A stretch of DNA of 64,000 bases, from assembly GCA_044229145.1 (NCBI GenBank), contig JBGATO010000006.1, positions 1-64,000 of the forward strand, written 5' to 3'. This document shows positions 8,009-30,571 of the stretch, piece by piece (positions within the stretch are counted from its first letter, which is position 1; each line of letters opens with the position of its first letter). The DNA is from Candidatus Eiseniibacteriota bacterium (GTDB lineage Bacteria; Eisenbacteria; RBG-16-71-46; CAZEPH01). The position numbers and the translations under genes are program-made. The notes beneath the pieces were generated by a model that saw only the letters and a program-made list of their open reading frames with translations, did no database searches and was not told the DNA's origin.

Positions 8009-8049
8009 GCGGCCGCGACGTCCAGGCCGCGTCCCCGGAGGACTCACGC

Positions 8050-9369: not shown

Positions 9370-9382
9370 AGTGGGGGACAGC

Positions 9383-9739
9383 ATGCACACCCGTACGCGA
9401 CTGGCCCTCGGGCTCGTCCTCGCCGCGGCCGCCTGCTTCGCGGTCGCCAGCGTCGCCAACGAGCGCATCGCGGCCGACACGCGCAAAGACTGCACGGCGT
9501 GTCACGACAAGCCGGGCAGCAAGCGCCTCACCGACGCCGGCAAGTACTTCGAAACGCAGAAGACGCTCGACGGATTCGACGCGATCCAGACGTCGTTCGG
9601 TCACTGTACGGCGTGCCACGACACCAAGCCAGGGTCGACGAAGCTGACGGCCAAGGGCACGCAGTTCTCGGCGTTCGCCAAGGACATGCCGGCACTCACC
9701 GAGTGGATGAAGGCGAATCACCCATCGCCGGCCAAGTAG
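9383..9739 (+). CDS. Small exported diheme cytochrome c
   Basis: Signal peptide; two CTACH motifs within an internal duplication. Confidence 0.85.
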   Translation: MHTRTRLALGLVLAAAACFAVASVANERIAADTRKDCTACHDKPGSKRLTDAGKYFETQKTLDGFDAIQTSFGHCTACHDTKPGSTKLTAKGTQFSAFAKDMPALTEWMKANHPSPAK

Positions 9740-9802
9740 AGCGCATGCGCGCGCCGGGTTACGCGCTGATGGAACCCGGCGTGGCGTGTCGAGGAGGTGT
9801 TC

Positions 9803-10816: not shown

Positions 10817-10894
10817 GACACACGGCCGCCCTGCCCGCGTGCTAGCATGCGGATAGGGCGCGCCACTGCGGCTCGTCCATCCGGAGAGTCGACC

Positions 10895-11257
10895 ATGATG
10901 CCGCACCTCCCCGGCTCCGCCCCCGACGCAGCGGGCGAGCCATTTGCCGCCGACCTCGTCGCCTACCAGCCCGGCACGGTGGTGAGTCGCACGTTGATCA
11001 AGAAGCCGACCGGCACGGTGACGGTGTTCGCCTTCGACGCGGGCGAAGGGTTGAGCGAACATACGGCGCCGTTCGACGCACTCGTCCTGGCGCTGGATGG
11101 CGAGGCGGAGATTCCGATCGCCGGCGTCATGCATCGCGTGGCGGCGGGGCAATTGCTGCTGCTCCCCGAAGGCAAGCCGCACGCGGTGAAGGCGGTGACG
11201 CCGTTCAAGATGATGCTGATCATGATCCGCGGCGCGGCGGCTCCGACCAGCGGCTAG
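10895..11257 (+). CDS. Cupin-domain protein
   Basis: FAFDAGEGLSEHTAP...LDGEAEI...PHAVKA cupin motifs. Confidence 0.85.
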   Translation: MMPHLPGSAPDAAGEPFAADLVAYQPGTVVSRTLIKKPTGTVTVFAFDAGEGLSEHTAPFDALVLALDGEAEIPIAGVMHRVAAGQLLLLPEGKPHAVKAVTPFKMMLIMIRGAAAPTSG

Positions 11258-11790
11258 ATCTCGCCGTGATACGCGCGCGCTTCGGCCCATGCCCGATGCG
11301 CTGCCACGCGCTTCTCGAGTAGCGCCGCAACGTTGGCCCGCACGCGGTCGCCGTCATACACCGGCGACACCTTGACCGGCGGCACCGCGGCAAGGCGCGT
11401 GGCCACGTCGGCGGCGGCCGACCCGAGCGCGGACTCGCACTCGGCGTAAATACCGCCGGGCCCTTCTTCGAGCGGATTGTGCGCGAGCAGAATGCTCCAG
11501 AGGTGGCCGATCGTCTCGCCGTCCGCCGGGAGAGCCATCAAGCCCGCGAGAGCCGCGTGATCGGTGCGAATCAAATCTTCGAGCGCGAGACGTTCGCCGT
11601 CCCGGCAGCCGCGCGCCGCCGGAAACAACACCTTCTCCTCCATCGCGATGTGATGGAGGAGCGCGGCGCGGAACTCATCGTAGAGCGCGGGATCCGGCGT
11701 ATCGCCGCTGGCCCGCAGGCGCTGCAACAGCGCCCCCAGCGCGTGGTGATCGGCGATCAGCACATCGGTCGCCCGAACGGTCGTGGTCAT
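11254..11790 (-). CDS. Hemerythrin (HHE cation-binding) domain protein
   Basis: DHHAL, HHIAMEEKVLFP, DHAAL, HNPLEE pattern; GGAG RBS before ATG 11790. Confidence 0.8.
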   Translation of the reverse strand: MTTTVRATDVLIADHHALGALLQRLRASGDTPDPALYDEFRAALLHHIAMEEKVLFPAARGCRDGERLALEDLIRTDHAALAGLMALPADGETIGHLWSILLAHNPLEEGPGGIYAECESALGSAAADVATRLAAVPPVKVSPVYDGDRVRANVAALLEKRVAAHRAWAEARAYHGEI

Positions 11791-11810
11791 GAGGGGACTC
11801 CTGTCTCCGG

Positions 11811-12821
11811 CTAGGCGCCGGCTGCGGCCATCTCCGCGGTGCGGTACACGTAGGCGCCGGGTGCGCGTTCGCGGAGGATGCGCGCGGCGTCGGCGTCGGT
11901 CTTGCCGTACACGGTGGTCGCGGCGACGTCCGCGAGCATGCAGCCCGCGGCACGCACCGTCAGGCTGTGCGCGCGCACCAGGCGCGGCGACGCGGTGAAC
12001 GGGTCGAGGATGTGGTGGTAGCGCCGGCCCTCGTAGTCGAAGTAGCGCATGTAGTCGCCCGAGGTCGCGACCGATTCGTCGCTCACCTCGAACTCCGCGA
12101 CCAGTCCGTCCGGATCGGTTGGCGACTGCACGCCGACACGCCACGGCTTCCCTTCCGCGTTGTGCCCCATCGCGTAGAGGTCGCCGCCGATGTTCACGAG
12201 TCCGTTCTCGACGCCGAACGCGCGCAGCGTCTCGACCGCGCGCTCGATGCCGTAGCCCTTGGCGATACCGCCGAGATCGAGCTTGGCGTCGGCGTGCGCG
12301 AAGCGGAGCGCCGGCTCGCCGGCGGCGCGCGTCAGCTCCACCGCGTGGTGCAGGCGACGTCCCGCGAGTGGCTCGTACTGTCCAGCGGTCGGGGGCACGC
12401 GGCGACTCTTCACGTCCCACAGGTCGATGGCCTTGCCAATGGCGGGGTCGTACGAACCGCCGCTCGCCTCCGCCCACGCCAACGCTTCGCGCACCACCGC
12501 GGCGGTTTCGCGCGACACCGGCACTGCGCGCCGCGCGGCGTCCAGATTGGCGCGACCGATGTCGGAGCTGACGGAATAGTTCGTCATCAGACGTTCGACA
12601 CGTCGCAGCTCGTCGTACGCGGCGTCGATCGCGGCCTGCGCGCGCAGCGGGTCGTGGCTCACCACGCCGAGTTCGGCGACGGTGCCCATGACCGGAACGG
12701 TGCGCCGCACCAGACGCACACGGCGCGACGCGAACGGCACGGCCGACACCACGAAGGCGCCCAAGGCGAGCGTGAGGAACTCACGACGGCTCACGCCGTG
12801 CTGCGAACTCGACTGCGTCAT
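11811..12821 (-). CDS. apbE: FAD:protein FMN transferase (flavinylates RnfG/RnfD)
   Basis: VMGT, LDLGGIAKGY, NIGGD, VATSGDY, RYHHILDP; twin-arginine-like SRREFL N-terminus. Confidence 0.93.
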   Translation of the reverse strand: MTQSSSQHGVSRREFLTLALGAFVVSAVPFASRRVRLVRRTVPVMGTVAELGVVSHDPLRAQAAIDAAYDELRRVERLMTNYSVSSDIGRANLDAARRAVPVSRETAAVVREALAWAEASGGSYDPAIGKAIDLWDVKSRRVPPTAGQYEPLAGRRLHHAVELTRAAGEPALRFAHADAKLDLGGIAKGYGIERAVETLRAFGVENGLVNIGGDLYAMGHNAEGKPWRVGVQSPTDPDGLVAEFEVSDESVATSGDYMRYFDYEGRRYHHILDPFTASPRLVRAHSLTVRAAGCMLADVAATTVYGKTDADAARILRERAPGAYVYRTAEMAAAGA

Positions 12822-12994
12822 CTCCGGTCTCCTTTGCCGCCCGCCGGGGCGGTGCCTTCCGACTTGTCACACGATCCGCCGCACGACCCGCATCCGTGGC
12901 CGTCGCACGGCTTGTGGCGATACACGATCACGAACGCGGTGCCCAGCACCGCGCAGATCGCCACCCCGAGCACCCCCTGCAACCATCCGGTCAT
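12818..12994 (-). CDS. 58-aa single-TM Cys-rich small protein (NqrM-like or FeoB-associated Cys-rich type)
   Basis: Manual translation MTGWLQGVLGVAICAVLGTAFVIVYRHKPCDGHGCGSCGGSCDKSEGTAPAGGKGDRR*; fills the rnfA-apbE gap, with its TGA overlapping the apbE ATG. Confidence 0.8.
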   Translation of the reverse strand: MTGWLQGVLGVAICAVLGTAFVIVYRHKPCDGHGCGSCGGSCDKSEGTAPAGGKGDRR

Positions 12995-12998
12995 CTGC

Positions 12999-13583
12999 CT
13001 ACCCCGCGCTGAAGAGGCCGGCGAAGCCCATGAACGCCAGCGACAGACAGCTGGCGATCAGCATGGTGAGCGCGGTGCCTTTGAGCACCGCGGGCGTGTC
13101 GGCCAGTTCGAGGTCTTCGCGAATCGACGCCATCAGCACGAGCGCAAGGGTCAGCCCGAGTCCAGCGCCGAGCGCGAAGACGATGCCTTCCACCAATCCA
13201 TACCCACGCGACGTTTGGAACAGCGCCAGCGCGAGCACCGCGCAATTGGTGGTGATGAGGGGCAGGTAGATCCCGAGTTCGCGGAACAGCGTCGGGCTCA
13301 CCTTCTTGATCACCATCTCGACGAACTGGACGGTCGACGCGATCACCACGATGAACGCGATGAGCCGCAGATACGGCACCGTCGAGAGCAGGAAGCGATT
13401 GAGGAACCACGTGCAAATCGCCGTGATCACCAGCGTGAAGGTGTCGGCGGCGCCAAGACGGATCGCGGTGTCGACGCGCTTCGACACGCCCATGAACGCG
13501 CACAGGCCGAGAAACATCATGAAGGTGAAATTGTTCACCAACAGCGACGAGATGAAGATCCACGCGAGGTTGTGATTGCTCAT
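12999..13583 (-). CDS. rnfA: Rnf electron transport complex subunit A
   Basis: LVNNF..FLGLC, LGIYLPLITTNCAVL, SLAFMGF. Confidence 0.95.
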   Translation of the reverse strand: MSNHNLAWIFISSLLVNNFTFMMFLGLCAFMGVSKRVDTAIRLGAADTFTLVITAICTWFLNRFLLSTVPYLRLIAFIVVIASTVQFVEMVIKKVSPTLFRELGIYLPLITTNCAVLALALFQTSRGYGLVEGIVFALGAGLGLTLALVLMASIREDLELADTPAVLKGTALTMLIASCLSLAFMGFAGLFSAG

Positions 13584-14221
13584 CACGCGACCCTTTCCGT
13601 CACGGCCGCCGTCTGCTTCGCGGCCTTCCGCTGCGCCCGCCACACGATCAGCATCATGAAGAAGCCGAGCGTCAGGAAGCCTCCGGGCGGCAGCACCATG
13701 ATGACCCACGGCTCGTAGTGCGGTCCGAACACCGAGAAGCCGAGGAAGGTGCCGTTGCCAATCACCTCGCGCAACGTGCCCATCGCCAGCAACACACCCG
13801 TGAAGCCGATGCCGTTACCGAGCGCGTCGAGCGTCGAGCGCCACACCGTGTTCTTCGACGCGAACGCCTCGGCGCGGCCGAGCAGGATGCAGTTCACGAC
13901 GATCAGCGGCACGAACGGCCCGAGCGACTTCGAGACCGCCGGCAACAGCGCGGCGATCGTCATGTCGGCCACCGTCACGAACGTGGCGATGATCACCACG
14001 TAGGTGCCGATGCGCACCTCGTTCGGCACCACCTTACGGACTGCGGCCACCATCGCGCTCGAGGCCACCAGACAGAACAGCGTGGCGATGCCCATCGTGA
14101 TGCAATTGGCGACGGTATTCGTGACGGCCAGCGTCGGGCACAGCCCGAGCACCTGCACCAGCACCGGATTCTCTACCCACATGCAGCGCAGGAAGTCGTC
14201 GCGTGCGGTGGATTCGCTCAT
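13583..14221 (-). CDS. rnfE: Rnf electron transport complex subunit E
   Basis: ENPVLVQVLGLCPTLAVT, PLIVVNCILLGRAEAFASKN, LPPGGF. Confidence 0.95.
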   Translation of the reverse strand: MSESTARDDFLRCMWVENPVLVQVLGLCPTLAVTNTVANCITMGIATLFCLVASSAMVAAVRKVVPNEVRIGTYVVIIATFVTVADMTIAALLPAVSKSLGPFVPLIVVNCILLGRAEAFASKNTVWRSTLDALGNGIGFTGVLLAMGTLREVIGNGTFLGFSVFGPHYEPWVIMVLPPGGFLTLGFFMMLIVWRAQRKAAKQTAAVTERVA

Positions 14222-14919
14222 CGGGTCCCCTTGTCGTCGGCGGCCGCCGGATGCGACGCCATGTAGGCCTGGAGCAGCGGCTGGTCCTTCTCCACCGCAC
14301 CGTTGATGATGCGGATGACGGCGCGCGAGCTGATCGTCGCGCCGGTGATCATGTCGACCTTGTGCTTGTCACCGCCGTGATCGACACCGCCCTTGACGCC
14401 GGCGATCGGCGCCAGCGCGCCGACGAAACCGTCGATGAAGCGGCGGTCCTTCATGATCTTGTCGCCGAGCCCGGGCGTCTCCTTGCTCGAGAGCACCTTC
14501 ATGCCCATCACACTCTGCGCCGTCGGGTCGTAGCCGAAGATCAGCTGGATGTCGTCTTGGAATCCCGGCGCGGTCGACACGATGGCGAATCCAGCGCGCT
14601 GACCGGCCGCATCGTAGCCGGCGTAGATGTGGTCGACCTTCTTCTCGTCGACGCCGGCCGGCAGCTTCTCGACCAGCGCGTTGTTGTAGAGCAACAGCGT
14701 GTCGAAGCGCTTGGCGTCCTTGAGCACTTCATAGATCGCGGCGCGGGTCTCCGCGGCATGCTGACGCTCGATCGACGGAAGCGTCCAGGTGTAGACGAGC
14801 ACCATCAACAGGCCGGCGAGGCCGCTCGACATGCCGAGAACGAGGATCAAGCGCCACGCCGGCACGCCGACGTGTGCGGGCGCCTGCGCCGGAGCGGCGG
14901 CATCGTGGGGCGGGGTCAT
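14218..14919 (-). CDS. rnfG: Rnf electron transport complex subunit G
   Basis: N-terminal TM helix, KETPGLG, FMN-attachment motif DMITGATISS. Confidence 0.93.
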   Translation of the reverse strand: MTPPHDAAAPAQAPAHVGVPAWRLILVLGMSSGLAGLLMVLVYTWTLPSIERQHAAETRAAIYEVLKDAKRFDTLLLYNNALVEKLPAGVDEKKVDHIYAGYDAAGQRAGFAIVSTAPGFQDDIQLIFGYDPTAQSVMGMKVLSSKETPGLGDKIMKDRRFIDGFVGALAPIAGVKGGVDHGGDKHKVDMITGATISSRAVIRIINGAVEKDQPLLQAYMASHPAAADDKGTR

Positions 14920-15923
14920 GACGACTTCTCCGCGAGGCGGGCCGCGCCGAACACGCGCGGTTGCGTCGCCCGGTTGATGAACGGCACCAAGACATTCATG
15001 AGCAGGATCGCGTACATCACACCTTCGGGCAGACCGCCCCAGATGCGGATCAGCACCACCAGCACGCCGATGCCAGCGCCGAAGATCCACGCGCCGCGAT
15101 GCGATACCGGCGAAGTCACCGGATCCGTCGCCATGTAGACGGCGCCGAGCATGAGACCGCCCGAAAACAGCATGAATCCCGCACCCGGATACCGCTGCGG
15201 GTCGATGGTGTGCAGGATGGTGGCGAACACGGCGACGGTGGCCAGCAAGCTGGCCGGCGTGCGCCACGACATCATCTTCTTCCACACCAGGAACGCGCCG
15301 CACGCGAGGATGACCAGCCCGCCGGTCTCGCCCACCGAACCGCCGGTGTTGCCGATCATCAGGTTGAGCAGCGGCGTCGGCAGGTGCTCGAACTTGGCGA
15401 GGCCGAGCGGCGTCGCCGAGGTCACGATGTCGGCGGTGTGCGGGTGGAGGAACGGCCACGCGAAGTTGTCGCCACGGAGCTGGAACCACGAACCCGGCGT
15501 CTTGGGCCAGGTGGTGATCGCCACCGGGAACGCCGCCTGGAGGAACGCGCGACCGAGCATCGCCGGATTGAAGATGTTGTAGCCGAGCCCGCCGAAGATC
15601 AGCTTGCCGAGCAGGATGCCGAACACGCCGCCGAGAAACGCCATCCACATCGGGAAGCCGGGCGGCAGCGACAATCCGAGCAGCAGCCCGGTGATCACCG
15701 CGGATCCGTCCGCCAGCATGCGCCAGCCCTTGAACACGCCTTCGCAGACACAGGCGCCGGCGGTGCCGGCGAGCGCCACGAACAGCGCGCTCGGTCCGAA
15801 GAAGTACATGCCGGTGAGCAGCACGGGCACCAAGCTCCACACCACCGTCCACATCACCTTCGGCAGCGTCACCTGGCTGGCCAGGTGCGGCGACGCGGTG
15901 AGTAGGAATCGTTGCTCGCTCAT
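14916..15923 (-). CDS. rnfD: Rnf electron transport complex subunit D
   Basis: ASPHL, DGSAVITGLL, KLIFGGLGYNIFNPA, FMN motif TSATPL, MATDPVTSP, PEGVMYAILLMN. Confidence 0.95.
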   Translation of the reverse strand: MSEQRFLLTASPHLASQVTLPKVMWTVVWSLVPVLLTGMYFFGPSALFVALAGTAGACVCEGVFKGWRMLADGSAVITGLLLGLSLPPGFPMWMAFLGGVFGILLGKLIFGGLGYNIFNPAMLGRAFLQAAFPVAITTWPKTPGSWFQLRGDNFAWPFLHPHTADIVTSATPLGLAKFEHLPTPLLNLMIGNTGGSVGETGGLVILACGAFLVWKKMMSWRTPASLLATVAVFATILHTIDPQRYPGAGFMLFSGGLMLGAVYMATDPVTSPVSHRGAWIFGAGIGVLVVLIRIWGGLPEGVMYAILLMNVLVPFINRATQPRVFGAARLAEKSS

Positions 15924-17323
15924 ACCGCGATCGCCTCCTTCGGGGCCGGCGCGTCGACATCGGCGGCGGGTGCGCCGTCGGCCACCACCGGCGGCGCCGG
16001 GGCCGCCGTGGTCGCCTGCTTGCGCAGCATCATCTTGCTCAACTGAAACATCTGCGCGAGCGGGATGTTCGACGGACACACGTACGAACAGCAGCCGCAC
16101 AACATGCAGTCACTCAGGTGCATCGCCGCCATGTCCTCGTAGCGCCGCACGCGCGCCAAGCGGCCGAGATGCGACGGGTTGAGGAACACCGGACACGCAT
16201 CGAGGCAGCGTCCGCAGCGAATGCACGGATACACCTCGGGACGCCGGCACTCGTCGTCGGTCAGCACCAACACGCCGGTGGTGCCCTTGGTGATCGGGGT
16301 GTCGAGGCTGCCCTGTGCGATGCCCATCATCGGCCCGCCGAATACCACCTCGCGCGCCTTGGGCGCGAGGCCGCCGCAGAAGGCGAAGACGTCGCGCAGC
16401 ATCACGCCGACCGGAATGATCAAGTTAGACGGCTTGGCGATGCCGTGTCCCGTCACCGTGACGATGCGCTCGATGAGCGGCAGTCCGGTATCGAACACTT
16501 CTGCCACCGCGGCGAGCGACGCGACGTTCTGCACCAGCACGCCGACCGACGACGGCAACTTGCCGCTGGGCACCGCACGCCCCGTCACCACCTCGATCAG
16601 CATCTTCTCCGCGCCCTGCGGATACTTCACCGTGAGCGGCAGGATGGTGACGTCGATGTCGGACGGCTTGGTGCGTTCCATCGCGGCGATCGCGTCGGGC
16701 TTGTTGCGCTCGATGCCGACGATCACCTTGGCGATGCCGAGGCAGCGCATGGCGATGCGGATGCCTTCGTGCACGCGCTCCGGCTGCTCGACCATCACGC
16801 GGTGGTCGGTGGTGAGGTACGGCTCGCACTCGCAGCCGTTGACGATCAGGGTGTCGATCGTCGCGTCCTTCGGCGGAATCAGCTTGACGTGCGTCGGGAA
16901 CGCGGCGCCGCCAAGGCCGACCACGCCCGCGTCCTGCACCGCCTGCACGATCTGCTCGGGCGAGAGGTCGCGCCAATCCGGCACCATGCGCGGCCGCGGC
17001 AGCTGTCCCGAGAAGCGCTCGACGTCGATGCGGATCGCGAGTTCCGCCGCGCCCATCGGGTGCGGCCAGTACTCGATGGCCGCCACCGTGCCAGTCGCCG
17101 ACGCATGCACCGGCGCCGAGATGAAGCCGTCGGCCTTGGCGAGCAGGTCGCCGCGTTCGACGCGGTCGCCCGCCTTGACCAGCGGAATCGCCGGCTTGCC
17201 GGTGTGCTGCCGCAGCGGCAGCACCACCTGATCGGGGAACGGCATACGGCGTGTCGCCACCGCGGCCGTGAGGTCTTTCAGCTCCGGCGGATGGACGCCG
17301 TGCTGGAATGTCGTCCGCGTCAT
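15920..17323 (-). CDS. rnfC: Rnf electron transport complex subunit C
   Basis: GVVGLGGAAFPTHVK, NGCECEPYLTTD, KYPQGAEK, GGPMMG, CIRCGRCLDACP, CMLCGCCSYVCPS. Confidence 0.95.
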   Translation of the reverse strand: MTRTTFQHGVHPPELKDLTAAVATRRMPFPDQVVLPLRQHTGKPAIPLVKAGDRVERGDLLAKADGFISAPVHASATGTVAAIEYWPHPMGAAELAIRIDVERFSGQLPRPRMVPDWRDLSPEQIVQAVQDAGVVGLGGAAFPTHVKLIPPKDATIDTLIVNGCECEPYLTTDHRVMVEQPERVHEGIRIAMRCLGIAKVIVGIERNKPDAIAAMERTKPSDIDVTILPLTVKYPQGAEKMLIEVVTGRAVPSGKLPSSVGVLVQNVASLAAVAEVFDTGLPLIERIVTVTGHGIAKPSNLIIPVGVMLRDVFAFCGGLAPKAREVVFGGPMMGIAQGSLDTPITKGTTGVLVLTDDECRRPEVYPCIRCGRCLDACPVFLNPSHLGRLARVRRYEDMAAMHLSDCMLCGCCSYVCPSNIPLAQMFQLSKMMLRKQATTAAPAPPVVADGAPAADVDAPAPKEAIAV

Positions 17324-17324
17324 G

Positions 17325-20300: not shown

Positions 20301-22364
20301 CACCCGCACGTTGTCCTCGACGATGCGGTCGCCGAGCTTGCCGAACTTCTTGACCTGCTGCGCGCGAATGCCCTCGAACAACTTCGCCTCGTCGAGCCCG
20401 GCATCCTTGGCGAGCGTGGTGGCGCGGAAGAAGGCGCCCATGAACGCCGCGCCCTGCATGCGGTAGCGCAGGTCTTGCGACGTCGCTTCCTCACCGGCGA
20501 TCTTGAACGCGTCGAGCGAGAACACGCGGATCTTGCGGTCGCGAATGACGCGGCGCGCGTCGGCCGGCAGCGTGTTCCACAGATCCTGCGGCGACAGTCC
20601 ACTCTGGATCACGAACGCCCCCCCGCTGGCCAAGCCGGCCAGCGGATCGCTGTGCCGGAACACGTTGGCGTCCGGCGACAGCACGACGTTCACGTGCTTG
20701 AGTTCGCAGTTCAGCCGAATCGGCTCCTTGGCGAACACCGCGTAGAACGTCGTCGGCTGGCCCTTCTTCTCCGAGCCGTACTTGGGATTGGCCTTCACGT
20801 GCAGACCGCACAACTCGAACACGGTCATCGTCACGTTCTTGCCCATGGTGATCGCGCCCCACCCGCCGACCGAGTGGATGCGCAGCGCCGTCGCGCTGTC
20901 CGGCAGCAAGTTGATGTCGCCCGCGGTCGCCAGCGACAGCTCCGGCAGGTGCGGGTACGACTCGAGCAACTGCTCCTGCCAGATCTGCATCTTGGGCAGC
21001 TTGGTGCCCTGACGCACGAAGTCGATGCCGAGGTAGAACTGCCGGCGCTGCGCGCCGCCGTCGAGGATGTTCTCGACCGCCGCGATGAGGTCGCCCGGCT
21101 GCAGGTCGCGCGAGCCGAGACCGAAGCAGCCGCTGAAGAAGTCCGGCACGTCCTGCGGCGCCAACGGCGTCACGCCGGCGTGCGGCACCGAGGCCTTGGC
21201 GCGGCCGTTCTCGACACCCTTGCCCATCGCCGCGCGAATCTCGCGCAAGAGCGGCGCGTCCACCGCGAGCGGCTGGTCGACGCGCTCGAGCACCACCACC
21301 GCCTTCTTGCCCTTGAGCAAAGCGGTGATGCAGTCGGCCGGGAACGGACGGAACATCGACACGTTCAACACGCCGACCTTGAGCTTGCGTTCCTTGCGCA
21401 GGTAATCGGCAACCGCCTCGGCGTTCGGGATCAACGATCCTTGGCCGGCGATCACGTAGTCGGCGTCATCCAGCTTGTAGCCGGAGGCGCGCGCGTAGCG
21501 GCGGCCGGTGAGCGCCGCGAACTCCTCGAACGCGCGGTCCGCGAGCGGCTGCACGTGGTCGAAGTAGAACGGCCGCTGCGCGGCGACGCCCTGCTGGTAG
21601 CTGTCCTGGTTCTGCACCACGCCAACCATCGCCGGGTAGTCGAGGTTCATCAGCTCGGGCACGCGGCGCCGCGTCTCGCCGAACACCATCCGCTGCGCCG
21701 GCGTCGGCGAGTCGATGATGTCACTCGGCTCGCCGAGGTACGCCTTCACCAACTCACGCTCCGGCACCACCGCCGACTCGATGACGTGCGACGTCAAGAA
21801 GCCGTCCTGCGCGCTGATGCCCGGATTCAGCGAGAGCTCCGCGATGCGGTGCGCGATCAGCGTAAAGTCGGCCGCTTCCTGCACGTTCTTGGCGAAGATC
21901 TGGAAGAAGCCGGTGTCGTCGACGGCGTGGTAGTCGTCGTGCCCGCAGTGCACGTTGAGACCTTGCTTGGTGATCGCGCGCGCCGCGACGTTGAGCACGT
22001 AGGTGAGCCGCTTGCCGACCGCCGGGTAGAGCGACTCGTGCATGTAGGCGATACCCTGGCCGCTCGAGAAGTTGGTCGCCCGCAATCCCATCATGCTGAG
22101 GCCCGCGGTCACCGCCGCCGCCGCGTGCTCGCCTTCCGGCTCGAAGAAGATCAGCCGGCGGTTGAACGCATTCGGCACACCGGCGCCGACCGCCGCCGCC
22201 CATCCCTCGCCCATCTGCGTCGATGGCGTGATCGGGTAGGCACCGGCGGCCTCGCTGGCCGCGGTTTCCGACAGAACGACCGCCGCGCTGCCGTCCAGTG
22301 CGTCCGGCATTCCGGGGAACTGCGGCGTCGTGGGGGTCGTGGGGGTTGCTGTCCCAAGCTTCAT
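17325..22364 (-). CDS. por: Large single-chain pyruvate:ferredoxin oxidoreductase (NifJ-type) with insertions and an extra C-terminal ferredoxin domain
   Basis: AYPITPST, ARA, gamma domain HSVGGWGA, CTGCGQCWVQCP/CKGCNLCVEVCP, GACMGCGE, TGCSSVW, GGDGAMFDIG..YSNTGGQ; Pro/Ala linker then CTTCNEC...KCP. GGAG RBS 7 nt before ATG 22364. Confidence 0.9.
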   Translation of the reverse strand: MKLGTATPTTPTTPQFPGMPDALDGSAAVVLSETAASEAAGAYPITPSTQMGEGWAAAVGAGVPNAFNRRLIFFEPEGEHAAAAVTAGLSMMGLRATNFSSGQGIAYMHESLYPAVGKRLTYVLNVAARAITKQGLNVHCGHDDYHAVDDTGFFQIFAKNVQEAADFTLIAHRIAELSLNPGISAQDGFLTSHVIESAVVPERELVKAYLGEPSDIIDSPTPAQRMVFGETRRRVPELMNLDYPAMVGVVQNQDSYQQGVAAQRPFYFDHVQPLADRAFEEFAALTGRRYARASGYKLDDADYVIAGQGSLIPNAEAVADYLRKERKLKVGVLNVSMFRPFPADCITALLKGKKAVVVLERVDQPLAVDAPLLREIRAAMGKGVENGRAKASVPHAGVTPLAPQDVPDFFSGCFGLGSRDLQPGDLIAAVENILDGGAQRRQFYLGIDFVRQGTKLPKMQIWQEQLLESYPHLPELSLATAGDINLLPDSATALRIHSVGGWGAITMGKNVTMTVFELCGLHVKANPKYGSEKKGQPTTFYAVFAKEPIRLNCELKHVNVVLSPDANVFRHSDPLAGLASGGAFVIQSGLSPQDLWNTLPADARRVIRDRKIRVFSLDAFKIAGEEATSQDLRYRMQGAAFMGAFFRATTLAKDAGLDEAKLFEGIRAQQVKKFGKLGDRIVEDNVRVIRRGYDEVRELDVATLTDAPAERKGAAGVPALVAGSHVEAGLADPGRFWETVCFPSKVGQDPLADPFVALSTIPASTSSFRDMTDIRFEVPDFVASKCTGCGQCWVQCPDSAIPAIVTQIDDALRAAFDIAEADGGAVDKVRQIAKNLGREVRKQMLGGDAFVTFADTVAAAYAPVVAKLDADNERKAQLDAEFARVLTVLRDMPLAKTQPFFDVPEGKTKGNGALLNILINPYTCKGCNLCVEVCPEKALVTVKQDDAKVASLRRGFQIWQKLPETPDDYINVFDINEGIGVLSSLLLKKQNYMSMAGGDGACMGCGEKTGIHLVLSAVNALMGPRVARHVQNLDALIGKLDHQARELLVADADLDSAAHARGGSVAVPLSDEKKQKLERLTDLVHGLKDLLWRYTEGPGGHGRAQMAMANSTGCSSVWASTFPLNPYPFPWVNHLFQDSPSVAIGLFEGHMRKMADGFALIRRAELELEDAYDPSVHDRFFQHFDWKEFSDAEFQLCPPIFAVGGDGAMFDIGFQNLSRLLASDKPIRVIVLDTQVYSNTGGQACTSGFLGEISDMATYGRDQHGKQEMRKELGFLAMAHRTAFVVQSSQASPSHLLNGVLRGLQSHHPAVFIIHTPCPPEHGLADDASAHAAKLALESRAVPFLVYDPSGGPTMADRLHLDGNPMLDETWPTYDLTYVDDAGAEQTMTLPLTTADWAATETRFSKHFRRVKRDDWNDDMVPFGEFVALPRDERDGKTPFIYVLDDTRRLGRVAVAPEIVMLAEERLDYWHTLREIAGLDVPDAVRDTVAGMVESEFELKMQALRDEYEAKLTDLKTRYPQVIARRLAEGLMGMAGNGGTVTDLLKSLPAPSALPPVAPAAAPAPAATAAAAPAAATPAAAAPAPAATAVAEAEDEGGLEAYIESARCTTCNECTNLNGKLFSYNAKKQAYVKDASAGTFQQLVLAAEKCPVSIIHPGTPRNPKEKDLDKWVKRAERFQ

Positions 22365-22401
22365 GACCACACTCCGTTTCTGGGCTTGCGGCGCTTCGGA
22401 A

Positions 22402-23268
22402 CTACACGGCCATCGCGGCGGGTCGCGGCGCCGCGGGCTGCGAGGTGGTGGGGGCGAACTGCGTGCCCTCCACCCAGACGATTGCGTTGGTCGGGCAGCG
22501 CTGCGTCGCCGCGGCGCTCGCCAACGCGGCGAGCTGGCCGTTGACGACCGGCAGGTTGCCCTTCATCGCCACCACGCCGGTTTCGGCGTCGAGCGCGCAG
22601 CGGCCGCACGCGTTGCAGGCGACGCGGCAGAGCGCGGTCGCCGCCTCGCCGGCGAGCAGGCTGCGGCACTGCACCAGGAGCTTCTCGCGCAGCGACTGGA
22701 GGACGAAGAGATCCTTCGGGCACGCCGTCACGCAGTCGCCGCACGACGTGCATTTCTCGATGTCGACCACCGGCAGTCCGGCCGCGTTCATGACGATCGC
22801 GTCGAACGTGCAGGCGCGGGCGCAATCGGCGAGGCCGATGCAGCCCCACGTGCAACCCTTGCCGCCCGACTGCACCGAGGCGGCGGCGGCACACGTCTCG
22901 ATGCCGTAGTAGTCGGCCTGCTGCACCGCGACATCGGTGCCGCCGGCGCACAGCAGACGCGCCACACGCTTGTCCGCGGTGCCGGCATCGACGCCGAGGA
23001 AGTCGGCGATCGCCGCGTGCGTGTCGCTATTCGACACCGTGCACCCGGAGGGCTTGATGCGTCCGGCGACGACGTTCTCGGCGAACTGACGGCAGCCGGC
23101 GAGACCGCAGGCACCGCAGTTCACGTTCGGCAACATCCCGGCCACGACGTCGAGCCGCGGGTCTTCCCACACGTACAGCTTGGTGTGCGCGAAGGCGAGC
23201 ACGCTGGCGAAGAACACACCGAGCCCGCCCAGGATCGCCACCGCCTGCAGGATCGTGCTGGTCTGCAT
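22402..23268 (-). CDS. rnfB: Rnf electron transport complex subunit B (long polyferredoxin form)
   Basis: N-terminal TM helix, EDPR, LPNVNCGACGLAGC, CIGLADCARAC, CTSCGDCVTACP, CNACGRC. Confidence 0.92.
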   Translation of the reverse strand: MQTSTILQAVAILGGLGVFFASVLAFAHTKLYVWEDPRLDVVAGMLPNVNCGACGLAGCRQFAENVVAGRIKPSGCTVSNSDTHAAIADFLGVDAGTADKRVARLLCAGGTDVAVQQADYYGIETCAAAASVQSGGKGCTWGCIGLADCARACTFDAIVMNAAGLPVVDIEKCTSCGDCVTACPKDLFVLQSLREKLLVQCRSLLAGEAATALCRVACNACGRCALDAETGVVAMKGNLPVVNGQLAALASAAATQRCPTNAIVWVEGTQFAPTTSQPAAPRPAAMAV

Positions 23269-23271
23269 GGC

Positions 23272-24339
23272 TTATTCGAGCTCCGACGCGTCGACGAGGC
23301 TGAGGATCCACGAGGCGAGGTGATCGACCTTGGGATCGCTGGCCGGCGCCGGCGTGCTGCCGTTGAGGGCGGACTTCGCGGCGGCTGGTGTCGCGGCCGG
23401 TGTCGCCGGCGCGGCCGGCGCGGGTGCCACCGCCGGCGCGGCCACATCGACCAGCGCGAGCGCTTGCAACTGCCGCAACTCGTCGAGCTGACGTTCGGGC
23501 GACAAGCCGCCCCGCGTCTGCGCGATGCGGCCCTGCGGCACGAACGCGATGTCGAGCCGCTTGGCCGGCGTCTCGCCCGCCGCCGGGTCATGCACGAAGT
23601 GCGCGGCGTTCTCCGACACCCACGCCACCACCGCCGGCCCGGCGAACGCGGCGAACCGCGCGAAGCAGGCGCCGTCCGGCGTCTGCGCCACGAACGTCCC
23701 CGGCGTGATCAGGCGCACCAGCGCAGCCGGCGCGCATTCGCCGCGCACCACCAGCACCAGCTTTTGCCGGCCGTCGAGGAACTCGGCGAGATCACCCGCG
23801 CGCACGTCGGCGCCCTCGACGTCGATGACCAACGGCGGCGCGACCTGACGCTCCGCCGTCGACCACGTCTCCGGCGGGCAGGCGCGCAACAGCGCCGCCT
23901 CGATCGCCTGATCGCCTTGGTGTTGGCGTTCGAGGCGCACCACGCGCGCCGCGCCGAACGCCCGCCCGAACTCGCCGAGCGCCGCGTTCACCGCGTCGCG
24001 CATCCGGCCGCCCGACGGCACGCGCACCACGAAGGCCTCGCGGGTGGATTCGGCCACCGTGCGCAGCACGCGCAGCGCGTCACCGATGCGCAGCTCCGCC
24101 GCCACATCGATGGTGTCCGTGTGCCCCGCGAGCTGGGCAAAGCGCTCGGCGTCGACGTGCGCGGTGGCGAACACGCCGAGCTCGAGCCGCGCACGTCCGC
24201 CGTCGTTCATCTGCGAGGAGGCGTGGCTGGCCAGATAGCCACGCACCGCCTCCGCGGTCTCCGCGACCGCGGAGTGATACGCGTTGAGGGCGCCCGACAC
24301 TGCGTCGAGCGCGGCGGCGATGCGGTCGTCAGACGGCAT
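23272..24339 (-). CDS. Hypothetical protein; apparent degenerate paralog of the PFOR C-terminal TPP-binding domain
   Basis: Start overlaps the korB 3' end and stop lies 3 nt before rnfB; colinear similarity by eye to the neighbouring PFOR beta domain, without the GDG motif or Fe-S cysteines. Confidence 0.7.
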   Translation of the reverse strand: MPSDDRIAAALDAVSGALNAYHSAVAETAEAVRGYLASHASSQMNDGGRARLELGVFATAHVDAERFAQLAGHTDTIDVAAELRIGDALRVLRTVAESTREAFVVRVPSGGRMRDAVNAALGEFGRAFGAARVVRLERQHQGDQAIEAALLRACPPETWSTAERQVAPPLVIDVEGADVRAGDLAEFLDGRQKLVLVVRGECAPAALVRLITPGTFVAQTPDGACFARFAAFAGPAVVAWVSENAAHFVHDPAAGETPAKRLDIAFVPQGRIAQTRGGLSPERQLDELRQLQALALVDVAAPAVAPAPAAPATPAATPAAAKSALNGSTPAPASDPKVDHLASWILSLVDASELE

Positions 24340-25285
24340 AGCGATCCAGCTCCCGTGCCAGCAAGGTGAGTTTCTCCTCCGCGGTATGCACCGGGAGATG
24401 ACGGATCTCGTCGTAGCGTGCCGCGGTGTCGCTGCGGTAGAACACGCCGACGCGGAACTTGTCGAAGTCCTCGGCCATCGCGCGTGCCGCGGCGAGGTCG
24501 GTAGGATCGTGTTCGACGCGGTTCTTGTAGACGGAGGCAAGCTCCTCCGCCATCACGCCGCGCGGGTGCACCAGCATCTCGATTTGCCGCACGTCCTTGA
24601 TCGCCCCGTCGAACATGCCGGGCAGATACGCCGGGCAGCGCTGCACGATGCGCACGAACGACAAGCCATCGTGGTGGTACGCCGCGCGCACCGTCTCGTA
24701 GAGGTGATCCGGAATCCACTCCACCGTCTGCGCGACATAGGACACGTTGGTGACGCCGAGCGCCACGCTGAGCGGATTGAGCGGCGGCAGGTACGGCCCG
24801 TGCAGCGCGGTGTTGCTCGCCACGCCCATCGGCGTGGTCGGCGACATCTGCTTCTTGGTCAGGCCGTAGATACCGTTGTCGAGCAGCAGCACCACCATCT
24901 TCAGGTTGTAGCGCAGCCCGTGCAGCCAGTGCCCGGCGCCGATCGAGGTGCAGTCACCGTCGCCCATCACCACGAACACGTTGAGGTCGGGGCGCTGCAA
25001 CTTGACGCCGGTGGCGATCGGCAGCGCGCGGCCATGCAGGCCATGGAAGCCGTAGGTGTTCATGTAGTGCGGGAAGCGGCTCGAGCAGCCGATGCCGGAA
25101 ACGAAGACCGTTTGCTCCGGCACGAGTTGCTCGTCGGCGAGCACGCGTTGGACGGCGGTAAGCACCGAGTGATCGCCACAACCGGGACACCAGCGCGCCA
25201 AAGCGCCGGCGTAGTCTTCCATCTCGAAGAAATCGTGATCGTCTTCGAGCGAGCAGTCGAGCAGGGTGCGCGGCGCGGAGGACAT
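24329..25285 (-). CDS. korB: 2-oxoacid:ferredoxin oxidoreductase beta subunit
   Basis: WCPGCGD, SGIGCSSR, HGRALP, GDGD..SIG, DNGIYGLTK.Q.SPT. Confidence 0.92.
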   Translation of the reverse strand: MSSAPRTLLDCSLEDDHDFFEMEDYAGALARWCPGCGDHSVLTAVQRVLADEQLVPEQTVFVSGIGCSSRFPHYMNTYGFHGLHGRALPIATGVKLQRPDLNVFVVMGDGDCTSIGAGHWLHGLRYNLKMVVLLLDNGIYGLTKKQMSPTTPMGVASNTALHGPYLPPLNPLSVALGVTNVSYVAQTVEWIPDHLYETVRAAYHHDGLSFVRIVQRCPAYLPGMFDGAIKDVRQIEMLVHPRGVMAEELASVYKNRVEHDPTDLAAARAMAEDFDKFRVGVFYRSDTAARYDEIRHLPVHTAEEKLTLLARELDRYAV

Positions 25286-25298
25286 GCGCGACTCCTTC

Positions 25299-27221
25299 CT
25301 AGCGGGTGGCGGCCGGCTGCGGATAACGCGCCCGCAGCGCCTGAGCGATGTGACCGGGACGCAGCGGCTCGCCGTAGACGCGCGTCCAGCAGTCGACGTC
25401 GACGAGCGTGTGCGCGCGCAGCAGCCACGCGAGTTGTCCGAGCCGGCGGTTCTCCGGCGTGATGTACGGCGCGTCCGGTTCGTCGCTGTAGTTGATCTCC
25501 ACCGTCATCACCTTGGTGAAGCGGGCGAAGATCTCCTTGAGGCCCGGCTCCATCGGCGACAGGAAGCGCAAGTGGAGCGACGACACGCGCAGACCGTCGG
25601 CGCGCAACCGCGCCACCGCCTCTTCGATCGCGCCCTTCGTGCTGCCCCAGCCGACGACGAGCAGATCGCCGCTCGGGTCGCCGTTGACCACCGGCGGCTT
25701 GAGCGTGTGCTGCAGCACCGCGAGCTTGCGGCTGCGCATGGTGCAGCCGAGTTGGTGCATGTCGGGGTCGTACGCAACCTTGCTGCGCTGGTCGTGCGAG
25801 AGGCCGGTGACCGTATGCATGCCACCCGGCTGTCCCGGCAGGATGCGGCGCGACAGGCCGGTCTTGTCGTCCCACTCGAAGGCGCGCTTGCCCTCGGCCG
25901 GCTCGCTGGTGTCGATCGGCGCCGCTTGCCAGTGCGCGTCGAGGTCGGGGCGCGGCCACGGCTGCACGCCGGTGGCGAGGTTGGCGTCCGACAACACGTG
26001 CACCACCATGCGGAAGGATTCCGCGATGTAGCGCGCCGTGGTCATGACGTGGAAGCACTCTTCGATGGTGGCCGGCGCGATGACCACGTGCGGTGCGTCG
26101 CCCGGCTGTCCATAGAGCACCGCGAGCAGGTCCGACTGCTCGACCTTGGTCGGCAATCCGGTGGACGGACCGCCGCGCTGCACGTCGACGATGACCAGCG
26201 GCACTTCGGTCATCACCGCGAGGCCGGTGGCTTCCGTCTTGAGCGCGAGGCCCGGGCCCGACGTCACCGTGAATGCCACCTTGCCGGCGTACGACGCGCC
26301 CACCGCGACGTTGATCGCGGCGATCTCGTCCTCGGCCTGGTGCAGCGTGCCGCCGAACTTCTCGAACACTTCGGCGAGGTAGTGCGACACCGAGGTGGCC
26401 GGAGTGATCGGATACATCGCGCACATGTCCAGGCCGGCCGCGATGGCACCCATGCCGATCGCTTCGTTGCCGTTCATCACCACCATCGGGCGCTGCGACG
26501 GCGTCGCGGTGACCTGGATGCGGAAGTCGAGGTTCTCCGACGCCCAGCGCGCGCCGAGCTCGAGCAGCGCGACGTTCTGCTCGTAGACCGCCGGCGCCTT
26601 CTTGCGGAACTCGTGGGCGATTTGATCGCGGGCGCGGTCGAGATCGCGGCCGAAGATCCAGCACAACATCCCGAGCGCGAACATGTTCTTCCCGCGCCGC
26701 GGATTTTCCATGAGCGTGAGGCACTGCTCCTGCATCGGCACGCGCACGATGCGGTACGGGTGTCCCGCCAATTCCTGCATGGCGGCGTCCCACTGCGCGC
26801 GGATCGCCTCGTTGGGGTCACTCGCCCACTGCTCTTCGAGGAGGATGATGGCGTCTTCGGCAAGTGTCTTGGTGCGCACGCGGCCGAGCAGCGCCTGCTC
26901 GTTGAACGCGACGATCAGGTTCGTCTCGTCGCCCCAGTTGGTGACCGCCTTCTCGCCGATGCGGATGCGGTTCCCCGAGGCGCCGGCCGGCGTACGCGGC
27001 GGCGGCTGCACCTCGGCGGGGATGATCTCCACCGTCCACACGCCGTTGCCCATCTTGGCGGAGACGGCGCCGAAGATCTGTCCGCACTTCTGCGCGCCTT
27101 CGCCGGAGTCGGACACGATTTCGATCACGTACTCGTGCCGGCGCAGGATTTCCGGGTCGCGGGATCCGGAAGCCACGCCCGCCGGTGCCGGAGCGCCGGA
27201 AGGCTGAGGGCTGGTCGTCAT
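25299..27221 (-). CDS. korA: 2-oxoacid:ferredoxin oxidoreductase fused gamma-alpha subunit
   Basis: DSGEG, GNEAIG, YPITPAT, QAEDEIAA, TSGPG, QRGGPSTGLPTK.EQSD. Confidence 0.92.
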   Translation of the reverse strand: MTTSPQPSGAPAPAGVASGSRDPEILRRHEYVIEIVSDSGEGAQKCGQIFGAVSAKMGNGVWTVEIIPAEVQPPPRTPAGASGNRIRIGEKAVTNWGDETNLIVAFNEQALLGRVRTKTLAEDAIILLEEQWASDPNEAIRAQWDAAMQELAGHPYRIVRVPMQEQCLTLMENPRRGKNMFALGMLCWIFGRDLDRARDQIAHEFRKKAPAVYEQNVALLELGARWASENLDFRIQVTATPSQRPMVVMNGNEAIGMGAIAAGLDMCAMYPITPATSVSHYLAEVFEKFGGTLHQAEDEIAAINVAVGASYAGKVAFTVTSGPGLALKTEATGLAVMTEVPLVIVDVQRGGPSTGLPTKVEQSDLLAVLYGQPGDAPHVVIAPATIEECFHVMTTARYIAESFRMVVHVLSDANLATGVQPWPRPDLDAHWQAAPIDTSEPAEGKRAFEWDDKTGLSRRILPGQPGGMHTVTGLSHDQRSKVAYDPDMHQLGCTMRSRKLAVLQHTLKPPVVNGDPSGDLLVVGWGSTKGAIEEAVARLRADGLRVSSLHLRFLSPMEPGLKEIFARFTKVMTVEINYSDEPDAPYITPENRRLGQLAWLLRAHTLVDVDCWTRVYGEPLRPGHIAQALRARYPQPAATR

Positions 27222-27249
27222 GCTGGATCGTCCTCTCGTCGAGATGCGA

Positions 27250-28593
27250 CTACATGAGGTACCGCAGGTACACGTAGACGGTGCAGATGGCGATGTTGAG
27301 CACCATCAGCGGGAACGCGACCTTCATGTAGGGCACGAACTTGATCGGGTGCCCTTCGCGCTCCGCGATGCCGGCCACCACCAGGTTGGCGCTGGCGCCG
27401 ATCAGCGTGCCGTTACCACCCAAGCACGCGCCGAGCGACAAGCACCACCACAGCGGCATCAGCTTCTCGGGACCGCCAAAGGTCGACGCCATCGTCTTGA
27501 TGAGCGGGATCATCGCCGCCACGAACGGGATGTTGTCGATGAACGCCGACAACACGGCTGACGCCCACAGGATCGCCATCGCGGTGATGTTGAGGTCACC
27601 GTGGGTGGCGGCGAGGAGCTTCTGCGCCAAGATGCCGAGCAGGCCGGCCTGCTCCACACCGGCGACGACGATGAACAAGCCGAGGAAGAACATGAGGGTG
27701 ACCCACTCGACCTCGGTGAATGCGCGGTGCACCTCGGAGGACTGCTCCTCCGACGGCTTGCCGAGGTTGTCGAGCAGGAGCAACAGCGCGGCGCCGAACA
27801 TCGCGATGGTCGCCGGCTCGAGGTGAATCTTGCGCGCGAAGACGAAGCAGCCGATGACGACCGCGAGCACCGCGAGAGCTTGCTTGAGCAAGCGCGGGTC
27901 CTTGATCGCCTCGTGCTCGGCGAGGTTCATCACCCGCTGCCGGTCTTCCGGCGCCGCGTGGAATTCCTTGCGCCACAGGAAGCGAATCGGCACGAGGGTG
28001 GCAAGGAGCACCACGGCGCACACGGGTGCCAAGTTCACCACGAACTCATTGAAGGTGATACCGACACCCGAGCCGATCATGATGTTCGGCGGATCGCCGA
28101 TCAGCGTCGCCGTGCCGCCGATGTTCGAACTGAAGATCACCGCCACCAGATACGGATACGGCTTCACCCGCAGATCCTGCGTGATCAGCAGCGTCACCGG
28201 CAGCGTCAGTAACACCGTCGTCACATTGTCGAGGAACGCCGAGAACACCGCCGTCACCAGCGACATCATCACCAGCACGCGCCACGGCTCCGCCTTCACC
28301 AGCTTCGCCGCCCAGATCGCCACGTACTGGAACACCCCGGAGCGCCGCGTGATCGCGACGATGATCATCATCCCCGCCAGCAGCCCGATGGTGTTGAAGT
28401 CGATCCCGCGAATCGCCGCTTCTTGCGTCAACACGCCCGCCAGGATCATCACCCCGGCGCCCAGCAACCCGACGATGGCGCGGTTGATCTTGTCGCTCAT
28501 CACCACGATGTAGGTGAGCACGAACAGCGGGGTGGCCACCCATAGGGCGTTCCACCCGAACACGACGTGTGAGGCCGCTGCCTCCGGATTCAT
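27250..28593 (-). CDS. ArsB/NhaD/SLC13 (CitMHS/P-protein-like) ion transporter, copy 1
   Basis: IDFNTIGLLAGMM, SAFLDNVTTVL, SNIGGTATLIGDPPN, DNIPF, GGNGTLIGASAN; stop is 28 nt upstream of korA. Confidence 0.9.
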   Translation of the reverse strand: MNPEAAASHVVFGWNALWVATPLFVLTYIVVMSDKINRAIVGLLGAGVMILAGVLTQEAAIRGIDFNTIGLLAGMMIIVAITRRSGVFQYVAIWAAKLVKAEPWRVLVMMSLVTAVFSAFLDNVTTVLLTLPVTLLITQDLRVKPYPYLVAVIFSSNIGGTATLIGDPPNIMIGSGVGITFNEFVVNLAPVCAVVLLATLVPIRFLWRKEFHAAPEDRQRVMNLAEHEAIKDPRLLKQALAVLAVVIGCFVFARKIHLEPATIAMFGAALLLLLDNLGKPSEEQSSEVHRAFTEVEWVTLMFFLGLFIVVAGVEQAGLLGILAQKLLAATHGDLNITAMAILWASAVLSAFIDNIPFVAAMIPLIKTMASTFGGPEKLMPLWWCLSLGACLGGNGTLIGASANLVVAGIAEREGHPIKFVPYMKVAFPLMVLNIAICTVYVYLRYLM

Positions 28594-30265: not shown

Positions 30266-30347
30266 GCAGGGTCTCCGATCCGGGCGACCAATGGCGCACC
30301 ACCGCGCATTCGCGCGGCACGCGCCGTGAGGGGGCATGACGCAGCGC

Positions 30348-30383
30348 ATGGTTCCGGGCGCGCGCGAGCCTGTCAATCTGCGA
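30348..30383 (-). promoter_or_regulatory. Putative sigma-70 promoter of transporter copy 2
   Basis: Minus strand TCGCAGA-TTGACA-N17-AACCAT; the 14-mer is identical to the one upstream of copy 1. Confidence 0.55.
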
Positions 30384-30571
30384 GCGGTATCGAGCACGTC
30401 GACTTGGCACCGCCCGCGTCCGCGAATCGCTCGCGCGGGTCGACCATGGTAGACGAATCATCGCGTTCACTCGCGTCTCCTACATCATGCGGAGTTGGCT
30501 TCCGTGATCCACGCGAGCGCCCCACCGTTCGTCGACTTCCCCGTCCTTCCTCCCAGACTGGAGAAACCGAC

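Follow-up and report, generated by a model that had tools for sequence, protein, structure and literature searches.

The window analysed here is the whole stretch of 64,000 nucleotides (nt) at the start of contig JBGATO010000006.1 from a Candidatus Eiseniibacteriota genome. It contains a string of 14 minus-strand genes, running from 28593 down to 11254, in which genes for two 2-oxoacid oxidoreductases are interleaved with those for the ferredoxin:NAD+ ion pump Rnf. The order is cit2-korA-korB-orfX-rnfB-por-rnfC-rnfD-rnfG-rnfE-rnfA, followed by an open reading frame (ORF) of 58 codons, apbE and a hemerythrin-domain gene. ORF listing, inspection of start codons, and Pfam and NCBIfam scans bear out the gene order and tight packing of the original prediction, with every gap or overlap at most 37 nt. 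The spacings from cit2 to rnfC are 28, 13, -11, 3, 31 (37 if por starts at its ATG) and 1 nt, the last being the distance from the por stop to the rnfC start; those from rnfC to the hemerythrin gene are -4, -4, -4, about -1, 4, -4 and 20 nt. The rnf genes are not contiguous, since por (5046 nt) separates rnfB from rnfC. All features of the string described below are on the minus strand.

The gene por (17325..22370) encodes an oversized pyruvate:ferredoxin oxidoreductase (PFOR), of 1681 residues from the GTG at 22370 or 1679 from the ATG at 22364, which has a GGAG upstream. The Pfam matches are POR_N (38-261), PFOR_II (303-385), POR (502-696), Fer4 (786-973) and TPP_enzyme_C (1201-1313), giving the domain order I-II-III-V-VI in one chain. 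In a HMMER alignment with the Moorella PFOR (6CIN) the cofactor sites are all conserved: the Fer4 motifs CTGCGQCWVQCP and CKGCNLCVEVCP, the proximal-cluster cysteines (GACMGCGE, NSTGCSS and HTPC) and the thiamine diphosphate (ThDP) motif (GGDGAM...DTQVYSNTGGQ). The protein therefore retains the 12 cysteines of three [4Fe-4S] clusters, together with GDG and N1241, and these ligands are invariant across a 14-sequence cross-phylum alignment with a mean column identity of 64%. Judged by its ligands, por is catalytically intact.

Comparison with the homodimeric PFOR/NifJ enzymes (6CIN; Desulfovibrio africanus 1B0P; TIGR02176) shows agreement in domain order, in the ThDP motif and in all three [4Fe-4S] sites. 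However, por is some 450-500 residues longer, having two insertions (about 100 residues between the two Fer4 motifs and about 90 past the first proximal cysteine pair, relative to 6CIN) and a C-terminal extension. It also scores only 382 bits against TIGR02176, the PFOR/NifJ equivalog family, which is far under the cut-off of 911.35 and places it in a separate subfamily. The putative substrate is pyruvate. T48 and R131, whose counterparts in D. africanus PFOR have a role in pyruvate binding, are conserved in the 14-sequence alignment and site table.

The C-terminal extension consists of two parts. Residues 1551-1599 (17574..17720) form an apparently flexible linker in which 26 of the 49 residues are alanine and 11 are proline. 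They are followed, at residues 1600-1681 (17328..17573), by a tethered single-cluster ferredoxin domain (Fer4_13, 1606-1658) and a conserved tail. In the same 14 sequences the tail from H1658 to A1677 is conserved and four cysteines of the domain (C1610, C1613, C1616 and C1652) never vary; the tethered-ferredoxin motif is visible in all 51 full-length por homologues examined. It is correct, as originally remarked, that the operon has no stand-alone ferredoxin gene, but this ferredoxin domain within por had been overlooked. The layout recalls the lipoyl swinging arms of 2-oxoacid dehydrogenase E2 subunits, as an analogy without homology: both have a small carrier on an Ala/Pro linker, but here the carrier is a [4Fe-4S] ferredoxin and its acceptor would be a membrane complex.

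All six Rnf subunit genes are present. RnfB (22402..23268; TIGR01944 72.5 bits, cut-off 68.7) is of the long type: hydrophobicity peaks at residue 9, in a membrane helix at the N terminus, and the chain has 20 cysteines, a Pfam FeS domain at 46-77, and Fer4 domains. The remaining subunits are RnfC (15920..17323; TIGR01945 518.3 bits, cut-off 245.95), RnfD (14916..15923; TIGR01946 304.3, cut-off 207), RnfG (14218..14919; TIGR01947 113.2, cut-off 102), RnfE (13583..14221; TIGR01948 230.5, cut-off 213.4) and RnfA (12999..13583). Only the last falls slightly under its NCBIfam cut-off (TIGR01943 225.8 bits against 229.3), with a clear Pfam Rnf-Nqr match (E 5.2e-53). RnfG has a TGAT flavinylation-type motif at residue 192 and the operon has an ApbE gene, so that both signs of covalently bound flavin mononucleotide (FMN) are present; a search of RnfD for [ST]G[AS]T gave no match.

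In the current view, Rnf draws its electrons from a pool of free ferredoxin. The canonical complexes (Acetobacterium woodii 9ERI, Clostridium tetanomorphum 7ZC6, Azotobacter vinelandii 8AHX) have the same six subunits, and RnfB is nearest to those of the first two (9eri_B, E 2.1e-55; 7zc6_B, E 1.4e-51). To our knowledge none of the solved Rnf complexes has a PFOR-type subunit. The operon described here differs from them in the 5-kb PFOR gene between rnfB and rnfC, in having a fused ferredoxin domain as its putative electron donor, and in sharing one gene string with korAB, orfX, apbE and a small Cys-rich ORF.

The arrangement is widespread. A scan for por, using one genome per species, gave 320 pattern matches; a relative is encoded at 298 of these, and the top 80 loci were taken further. 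The proteins of the window were mapped onto these loci by tblastn, and 62 of the loci have both flanks long enough for the neighbors to be judged. In 48 of the 62, por has rnfB immediately before it and rnfC immediately after it; at 12 neither neighbor is there, and at two only rnfB is. The 48 loci come from Pseudomonadota (35, including Thiothrix, Methylobacter, Lamprocystis and Rhodocyclaceae), Gemmatimonadota (7), Planctomycetota (3), Acidobacteriota (2) and SAR324 (1), and they include complete genomes and isolates. Uniqueness of the order to a single assembly was the finding that the original prediction had named as fatal to it; with the order kept at 48 of 62 loci and in five groups, the rnfB-por-rnfC arrangement is instead far beyond chance. 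It may be noted separately that in Acidobacteriota metagenome-assembled genomes (MAGs) with a solitary long por (loci L009, L011, L016, L021 and L022), a convergent apbE is found just downstream.

A search of 206 genomes of the organism's own phylum found relatives of the C-terminal part of por in 13, of which three were examined. These have a different kind of operon, here called type 2 (that of the window being type 1). In G048 and G042 the order is korA-korB-'half' (about 850 residues)-rnfB-'mid' (about 1500 residues)-rnfCDGEA-apbE, and in G051 it is korA-korB-'half'-por-rnfB-'mid'-rnfCDGEA, where por is a live long form (61% identical), so that a live and a dead PFOR occur inside one operon. 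The 'mid' proteins are PFOR paralogs which, according to the site table, keep the eight domain-V cysteines but have lost the four proximal-cluster cysteines, GDG and the asparagine, and they are therefore catalytically dead. They would retain two Fe-S sites and be left with an electron-relay or scaffold role only, which fits a putative function as an electron-input module associated with Rnf. The 'half' protein is a dead domain VI plus an extension, and ranges from 800 to 1300 residues over five loci (L090, L091, L092, L099 and L100).

It is striking that every operon whose proteins were inspected has exactly one protein with a tethered ferredoxin. In type 1 this is por; in G048, G042, G209 and G210 it is 'half'; and in G051 it is the long por and not 'half'. 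Five genomes with a lone live por were also checked, and in each of the five a bona fide rnfC is present at another site, immediately preceded by a PFOR-like paralog. Three such regions were extended: G209 and G210 have a full type-2 operon with a ferredoxin-bearing 'half', and in G207 only the C-terminal part of 'mid' was matched before rnfC, the queries korA, korB, 'half' and rnfB giving no match there. A PFOR-like gene, live or dead, is thus directly upstream of every examined RnfC of the subfamily. The constant retention of dead PFORs before rnfC, an argument from gene order, is the strongest one that a PFOR-like protein would be attached to Rnf.

The second oxidoreductase is encoded by korA (25299..27221), with the gamma and alpha domains of a two-subunit 2-oxoacid:acceptor oxidoreductase (TIGR03710 552.8 bits, cut-off 482.75; Pfam POR, POR_N and PFOR_II), and korB (24329..25285), the beta subunit with ThDP and a [4Fe-4S] cluster (Pfam TPP_enzyme_C; TIGR02177 224.7 bits, under the cut-off of 261.9). 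KorB residues C33, C36, C67 and C217 and the motif G108-D109-G110 are invariant in 12 sequences. The nearest solved relative of KorA is 6n2n_A (E 3.1e-81), presumably the 2-oxoglutarate enzyme of an organism with a reverse tricarboxylic acid (TCA) cycle, and KorAB is probably a two-subunit oxidoreductase of the 2-oxoglutarate type. Both Pfam and the alignment give it a single cluster and no ferredoxin domain. Described two-subunit 2-oxoacid:ferredoxin oxidoreductases (OFORs) use free ferredoxin. KorA shares the gamma-alpha fusion of such enzymes (6N2N, Sulfolobus tokodaii 5B46; TIGR03710), and KorB keeps the four cysteines and GDG, but in contrast to them KorAB is always trailed by orfX (or by the type-2 'half'), and then by rnfB. 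The block korA-korB-orfX lies 5' of rnfB in 13 loci, from Gemmatimonadota, Planctomycetota, one Acidobacteriota MAG and one Halieaceae MAG.

The gene orfX (23272..24339; 355 residues) has no match in Pfam or NCBIfam. It belongs to a family of 595 clusters (at 50% identity, E<=1e-3), nearly all of 320-370 residues, and ends in an Ala/Pro linker followed by a C-terminal helix, which is conserved in 12 of 12 sequences with the consensus DPVDKLAAWLL. An AlphaFold2 model made from 12 sequences has a predicted local distance difference test score (pLDDT) of 80.2, and its top structural matches are PFORs (Foldseek E about 0.009). Profile-profile comparison aligns residues 118-275 with 1150-1374 of por (E 2e-4, probability 47%), with collinear motifs (PPLVIDVEGAD in orfX against PPIFAVGGDGAM in por, and FVHDPAAGETPAKRLD against LVYDPSGGPTMADRLH). 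The GDG...N ThDP motif is missing, the aligned sites reading G-A-D and then G or a gap; the cluster cysteines are absent, and no cysteine is invariant in the 12 sequences. With moderate scores from three agreeing methods, orfX appears to be a cofactor-less derivative of PFOR domain VI, and it aligns as a strongly shortened version of the type-2 'half' protein. An origin from KorB was rejected: hhalign finds no relation (E 0.68), which leaves the PFOR lineage as the probable source. An ESM Atlas lead to AAA-type clusters was discarded, its top score (0.87) being too low to use.

In all 13 of the 13 loci that have korAB, orfX is present as well. Given this strict co-occurrence, the PFOR-derived body and the tethered helix, orfX is a candidate adaptor, which would probably serve to hold KorAB near the module.

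A quick maximum likelihood tree of 59 RnfC sequences was rooted at the midpoint and contained one canonical rnfABCDGE row as outgroup. RnfCs from por-linked operons branch apart from the canonical RnfC, and those of the korAB type form one group (Shimodaira-Hasegawa-like approximate likelihood ratio test, SH-aLRT, 95). Within the tree the RnfC of the window clusters with korAB-type operons of Gemmatimonadota and Planctomycetota, away from the type-2 relatives of its own phylum. Together with the finding that orfX occurs in no own-phylum genome other than that of the window among the 206, this placement hints at horizontal acquisition of the operon.

The genome assembly comprises 164 contigs (4.23 Mb) and has a completeness of 89%. 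Besides korA and por, only one further gene carries a POR_N domain, that of an OFOR on contig C157. This OFOR lies 3' of a second Rnf locus (C157:84000-103900, locus L081; minus strand, approximately 5952-16126), which has the canonical order apbE-rnfC-D-G-E-A-B, and it consists of a Fer4+POR_N+PFOR_II (delta-alpha) fusion and a TPP_C+POR (beta-gamma) fusion. A Fer4_13 match is found at C157:100341-100511, just upstream of this locus. Each of the two Rnf loci in this organism therefore has an oxoacid oxidoreductase associated with it. Within the second locus, at 11449-15155, the RnfC matches are split in several pieces and an open frame of 1100 residues matches RnfD and FMN_bind (RnfG-type); frameshifts, fused genes, or long open frames in GC-rich DNA are possible explanations.

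Searches of this assembly found the pyruvate dehydrogenase (PDH) E1 (AceE), but no 2-oxoglutarate dehydrogenase E1 (SucA) above cut-off. Since no SucA was found, the oxidative direction is favored for KorAB in this genome. The picture is consistent with a facultative anaerobe that runs its oxidative TCA flux through KorAB and uses Rnf to re-oxidize the ferredoxin. No nifH was found above cut-off either, and support of nitrogen fixation was therefore rejected as a role for Rnf. The search for ATP-citrate lyase domains carries no information, as its control matched none of the control genomes.

We consider it fairly probable that the operon encodes a distinct subfamily of Rnf ferredoxin:NAD+ pumps with a built-in electron input. 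In the proposed mechanism, the intact oversized PFOR oxidizes a 2-oxoacid, probably pyruvate, and the electrons would cross its three [4Fe-4S] clusters to reach the distal cluster of domain V. There the protein's own ferredoxin domain, swinging on the 49-residue Ala/Pro linker, would collect them and hand them to the RnfB polyferredoxin. From RnfB they would travel on across the complex, reaching NAD+ at RnfC, in a process coupled to export of Na+ or H+; reduction of NAD+ at RnfC together with Na+ or H+ export is established for the Rnf family. KorAB would feed the same ferredoxin arm, kept near the module by orfX. ApbE would flavinylate RnfG, and would act with the small Cys-rich membrane protein in maturing Rnf. 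Possible roles of the permease and the hemerythrin protein are uptake of the substrate and the sensing or repair of oxidative damage, respectively. The hard-wired route from 2-oxoacid to Rnf that was originally proposed gains support from the tethered ferredoxin with its invariant cysteines, from the occurrence of this domain on exactly one protein per inspected operon, and from the PFOR-like gene before the examined RnfCs; the stable supercomplex that went with it is conjectural.

A bolder form of this proposal, which we regard as plausible but put forward only tentatively, is that a PFOR-like protein, live or dead, would be a stoichiometric subunit of Rnf. With its swinging ferredoxin the whole would be an ion-pumping 2-oxoacid:NAD+ oxidoreductase or, in reverse, a gradient-driven carboxylase, into which orfX or the 'half' PFOR would plug KorAB.

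An alternative is that the genes are no more than co-regulated: PFOR and KorAB would be soluble enzymes, co-transcribed with Rnf as parts of a metabolism of low-potential electrons, and the fused ferredoxin would diffuse to RnfB with no stable assembly. Four observations favor this alternative, and the first three of them also weigh against a built-in input. No membrane helix is predicted from sequence for por, nor for KorA, KorB or orfX. The long por with its ferredoxin domain lies apart from rnf genes in 12 of the 62 loci, and so can be encoded, and perhaps work, alone. Stand-alone ferredoxin genes of the Fer4_13 type elsewhere in the genome indicate a soluble pool. The second Rnf locus adjoins an OFOR of a different type, and has no gene embedded in it. 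The built-in input is further weakened by the low TIGR02176 score of por, which bears on the substrate; the absence of SucA, which rests on an assembly that is 89% complete; and the RnfC tree, a quick one with midpoint root and a single canonical outgroup on a long branch. On the other hand, dead PFOR paralogs whose only remaining clusters are those of domain V are found before rnfC in every examined type-2 operon, which is hard to explain for a free enzyme. Moreover, solved PFORs are dimers, and if por is one by analogy, a ferredoxin tethered to two chains of 1681 residues should gain little unless its acceptor were near. Co-regulation alone therefore seems to us possible, but unlikely.

The system is thermodynamically reversible, the reactions of both OFORs and Rnf being so, and this raises the question of direction. 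Working mainly in reverse, the ion gradient and NADH would reduce the tethered ferredoxin, and por and KorAB would act as pyruvate and 2-oxoglutarate synthases, for CO2 assimilation or anaplerosis in hosts that otherwise respire. Many carriers of rnfB-por-rnfC are sulfur oxidizers, phototrophs or methanotrophs (Thiothrix, Lamprocystis, Methylobacter), the PDH E1 of this genome already covers the oxidative reaction on pyruvate, and KorA is nearest to what we take to be a reverse-TCA enzyme. With no SucA found, however, KorAB or the OFOR on C157 is probably needed for oxidative TCA flux, and a mainly reductive role is doubtful.

The reading that the interleaving has no functional meaning, and stems from misassembly or from a recent insertion by chance, has practically nothing to recommend it beyond the fragmented and incomplete state of the assembly, since the order is kept across groups in 48 independent loci, complete genomes and isolates among them, with intact frames and tight spacing.

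The claim that the system is undescribed was slightly too strong. In the gill symbiont of Solemya velum, the rnf2 cluster (rnfBCDGEA) has PFOR genes between rnfB2 and rnfC2, with pyruvate proposed as a possible electron donor for this Rnf (Dmytrenko et al., 2014; PMC4287430). In the part of that paper available here this is one annotation sentence, which does not deal with protein size, the tethered ferredoxin, dead paralogs, korAB-orfX or distribution, and is accompanied by no experiment. The available parts of two further papers (PMC4014512 and PMC4853749) do not mention an embedded PFOR, and no biochemical or structural work on a PFOR-Rnf unit was found in a full-text search that covered few subscription journals. 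The operon represents an uncharacterized form of Rnf that is widespread and combines a tethered ferredoxin with modules for the oxidoreduction of 2-oxoacids, and the layout, shared by many bacterial groups, suggests a direct link from the oxidation of oxoacids to NAD and the pumping of ions.

If a built-in electron input is correct, it would be a new way of channeling low-potential electrons, with no equilibration with other users of ferredoxin, and one machine would join pyruvate and 2-oxoglutarate metabolism to NAD(H) and the membrane potential. Among the carriers are sulfur oxidizers, methanotrophs, phototrophs and wastewater bacteria, organisms of oxic-anoxic interfaces, and the system could account for energy conservation from oxoacids in hypoxic conditions, or for a ferredoxin-dependent fixation of CO2 alongside respiration. 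The pairs of live and dead PFORs would be a natural experiment in the turning of an enzyme into a scaffold. Carriers of the rnfB-por-rnfC order are available in culture, such as Thiothrix fructosivorans ATCC 49748, Methylobacter luteus and Lamprocystis purpurea DSM 4197.

The remaining genes of the string lie at its two ends. The first, cit2 (27250..28593), encodes a permease of the CitMHS/ArsB-NhaD superfamily (Pfam CitMHS, E 5.9e-92), and a tandem paralog, cit1 (28925..30265, minus strand; CitMHS, E 9.6e-94), lies 331 nt upstream. The two proteins are identical at 413 of 446 residues (93%), which points to a recent duplication; cit1 may or may not be part of the operon transcript. No cit match was found by tblastn upstream of korA in the 13 korAB-type loci. 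At the other end, apbE (11811..12821) encodes the FAD:protein FMN transferase (Pfam ApbE, E 7.7e-69), and is also found 3' of rnfA in eight korAB-type loci (tblastn). The last gene (11254..11790) has a Hemerythrin domain (E 1.9e-9), and none of the 80 related loci has a homologue of its product at E<1e-8. A scan for consensus promoters and terminators gave no promoter-like and six terminator-like sites, neither exceeding the shuffle means of 1.4 and 8.4.

The 58-residue ORF between rnfA and apbE (12818..12994 in the ORF listing) consists of one hydrophobic helix followed by CDGHGCGSCGGSC. A loose pattern picks up small Cys-rich ORFs 3' of rnfA at 24 of 44 loci, about 20 of them looking genuine by eye, and they fall into two sequence types. 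The 58-residue ORF has no Pfam match at E<=1; among 12 related ORFs scanned with Pfam, two have weak matches to FeoB_associated (E 0.025 and 0.33), neither significant. It is worth adding that nqr operons likewise have apbE and nqrM, and that both kinds of operon have a small ORF, Cys-rich and with a single helix, together with apbE behind their final pump gene. However, the ORF has no match to the NqrM family and the likeness is positional only. By this analogy it may be a maturation factor.

Elsewhere in the window, positions 750-6745 hold, in order, genes for a sigma-54 activator, for a molybdoenzyme set resembling polysulfide/thiosulfate reductase (a molybdopterin oxidoreductase, a 4Fe-4S subunit and an NrfD-type membrane subunit) and for a sulfur-transport protein. 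The operon is flanked by multihaem cytochrome c genes on the plus strand, with MtrC/c7-like matches, at 9371-9739 and 30260-32104. The second of these, which is the larger, overlaps cit1 where the long open frame of that gene has its upstream end.

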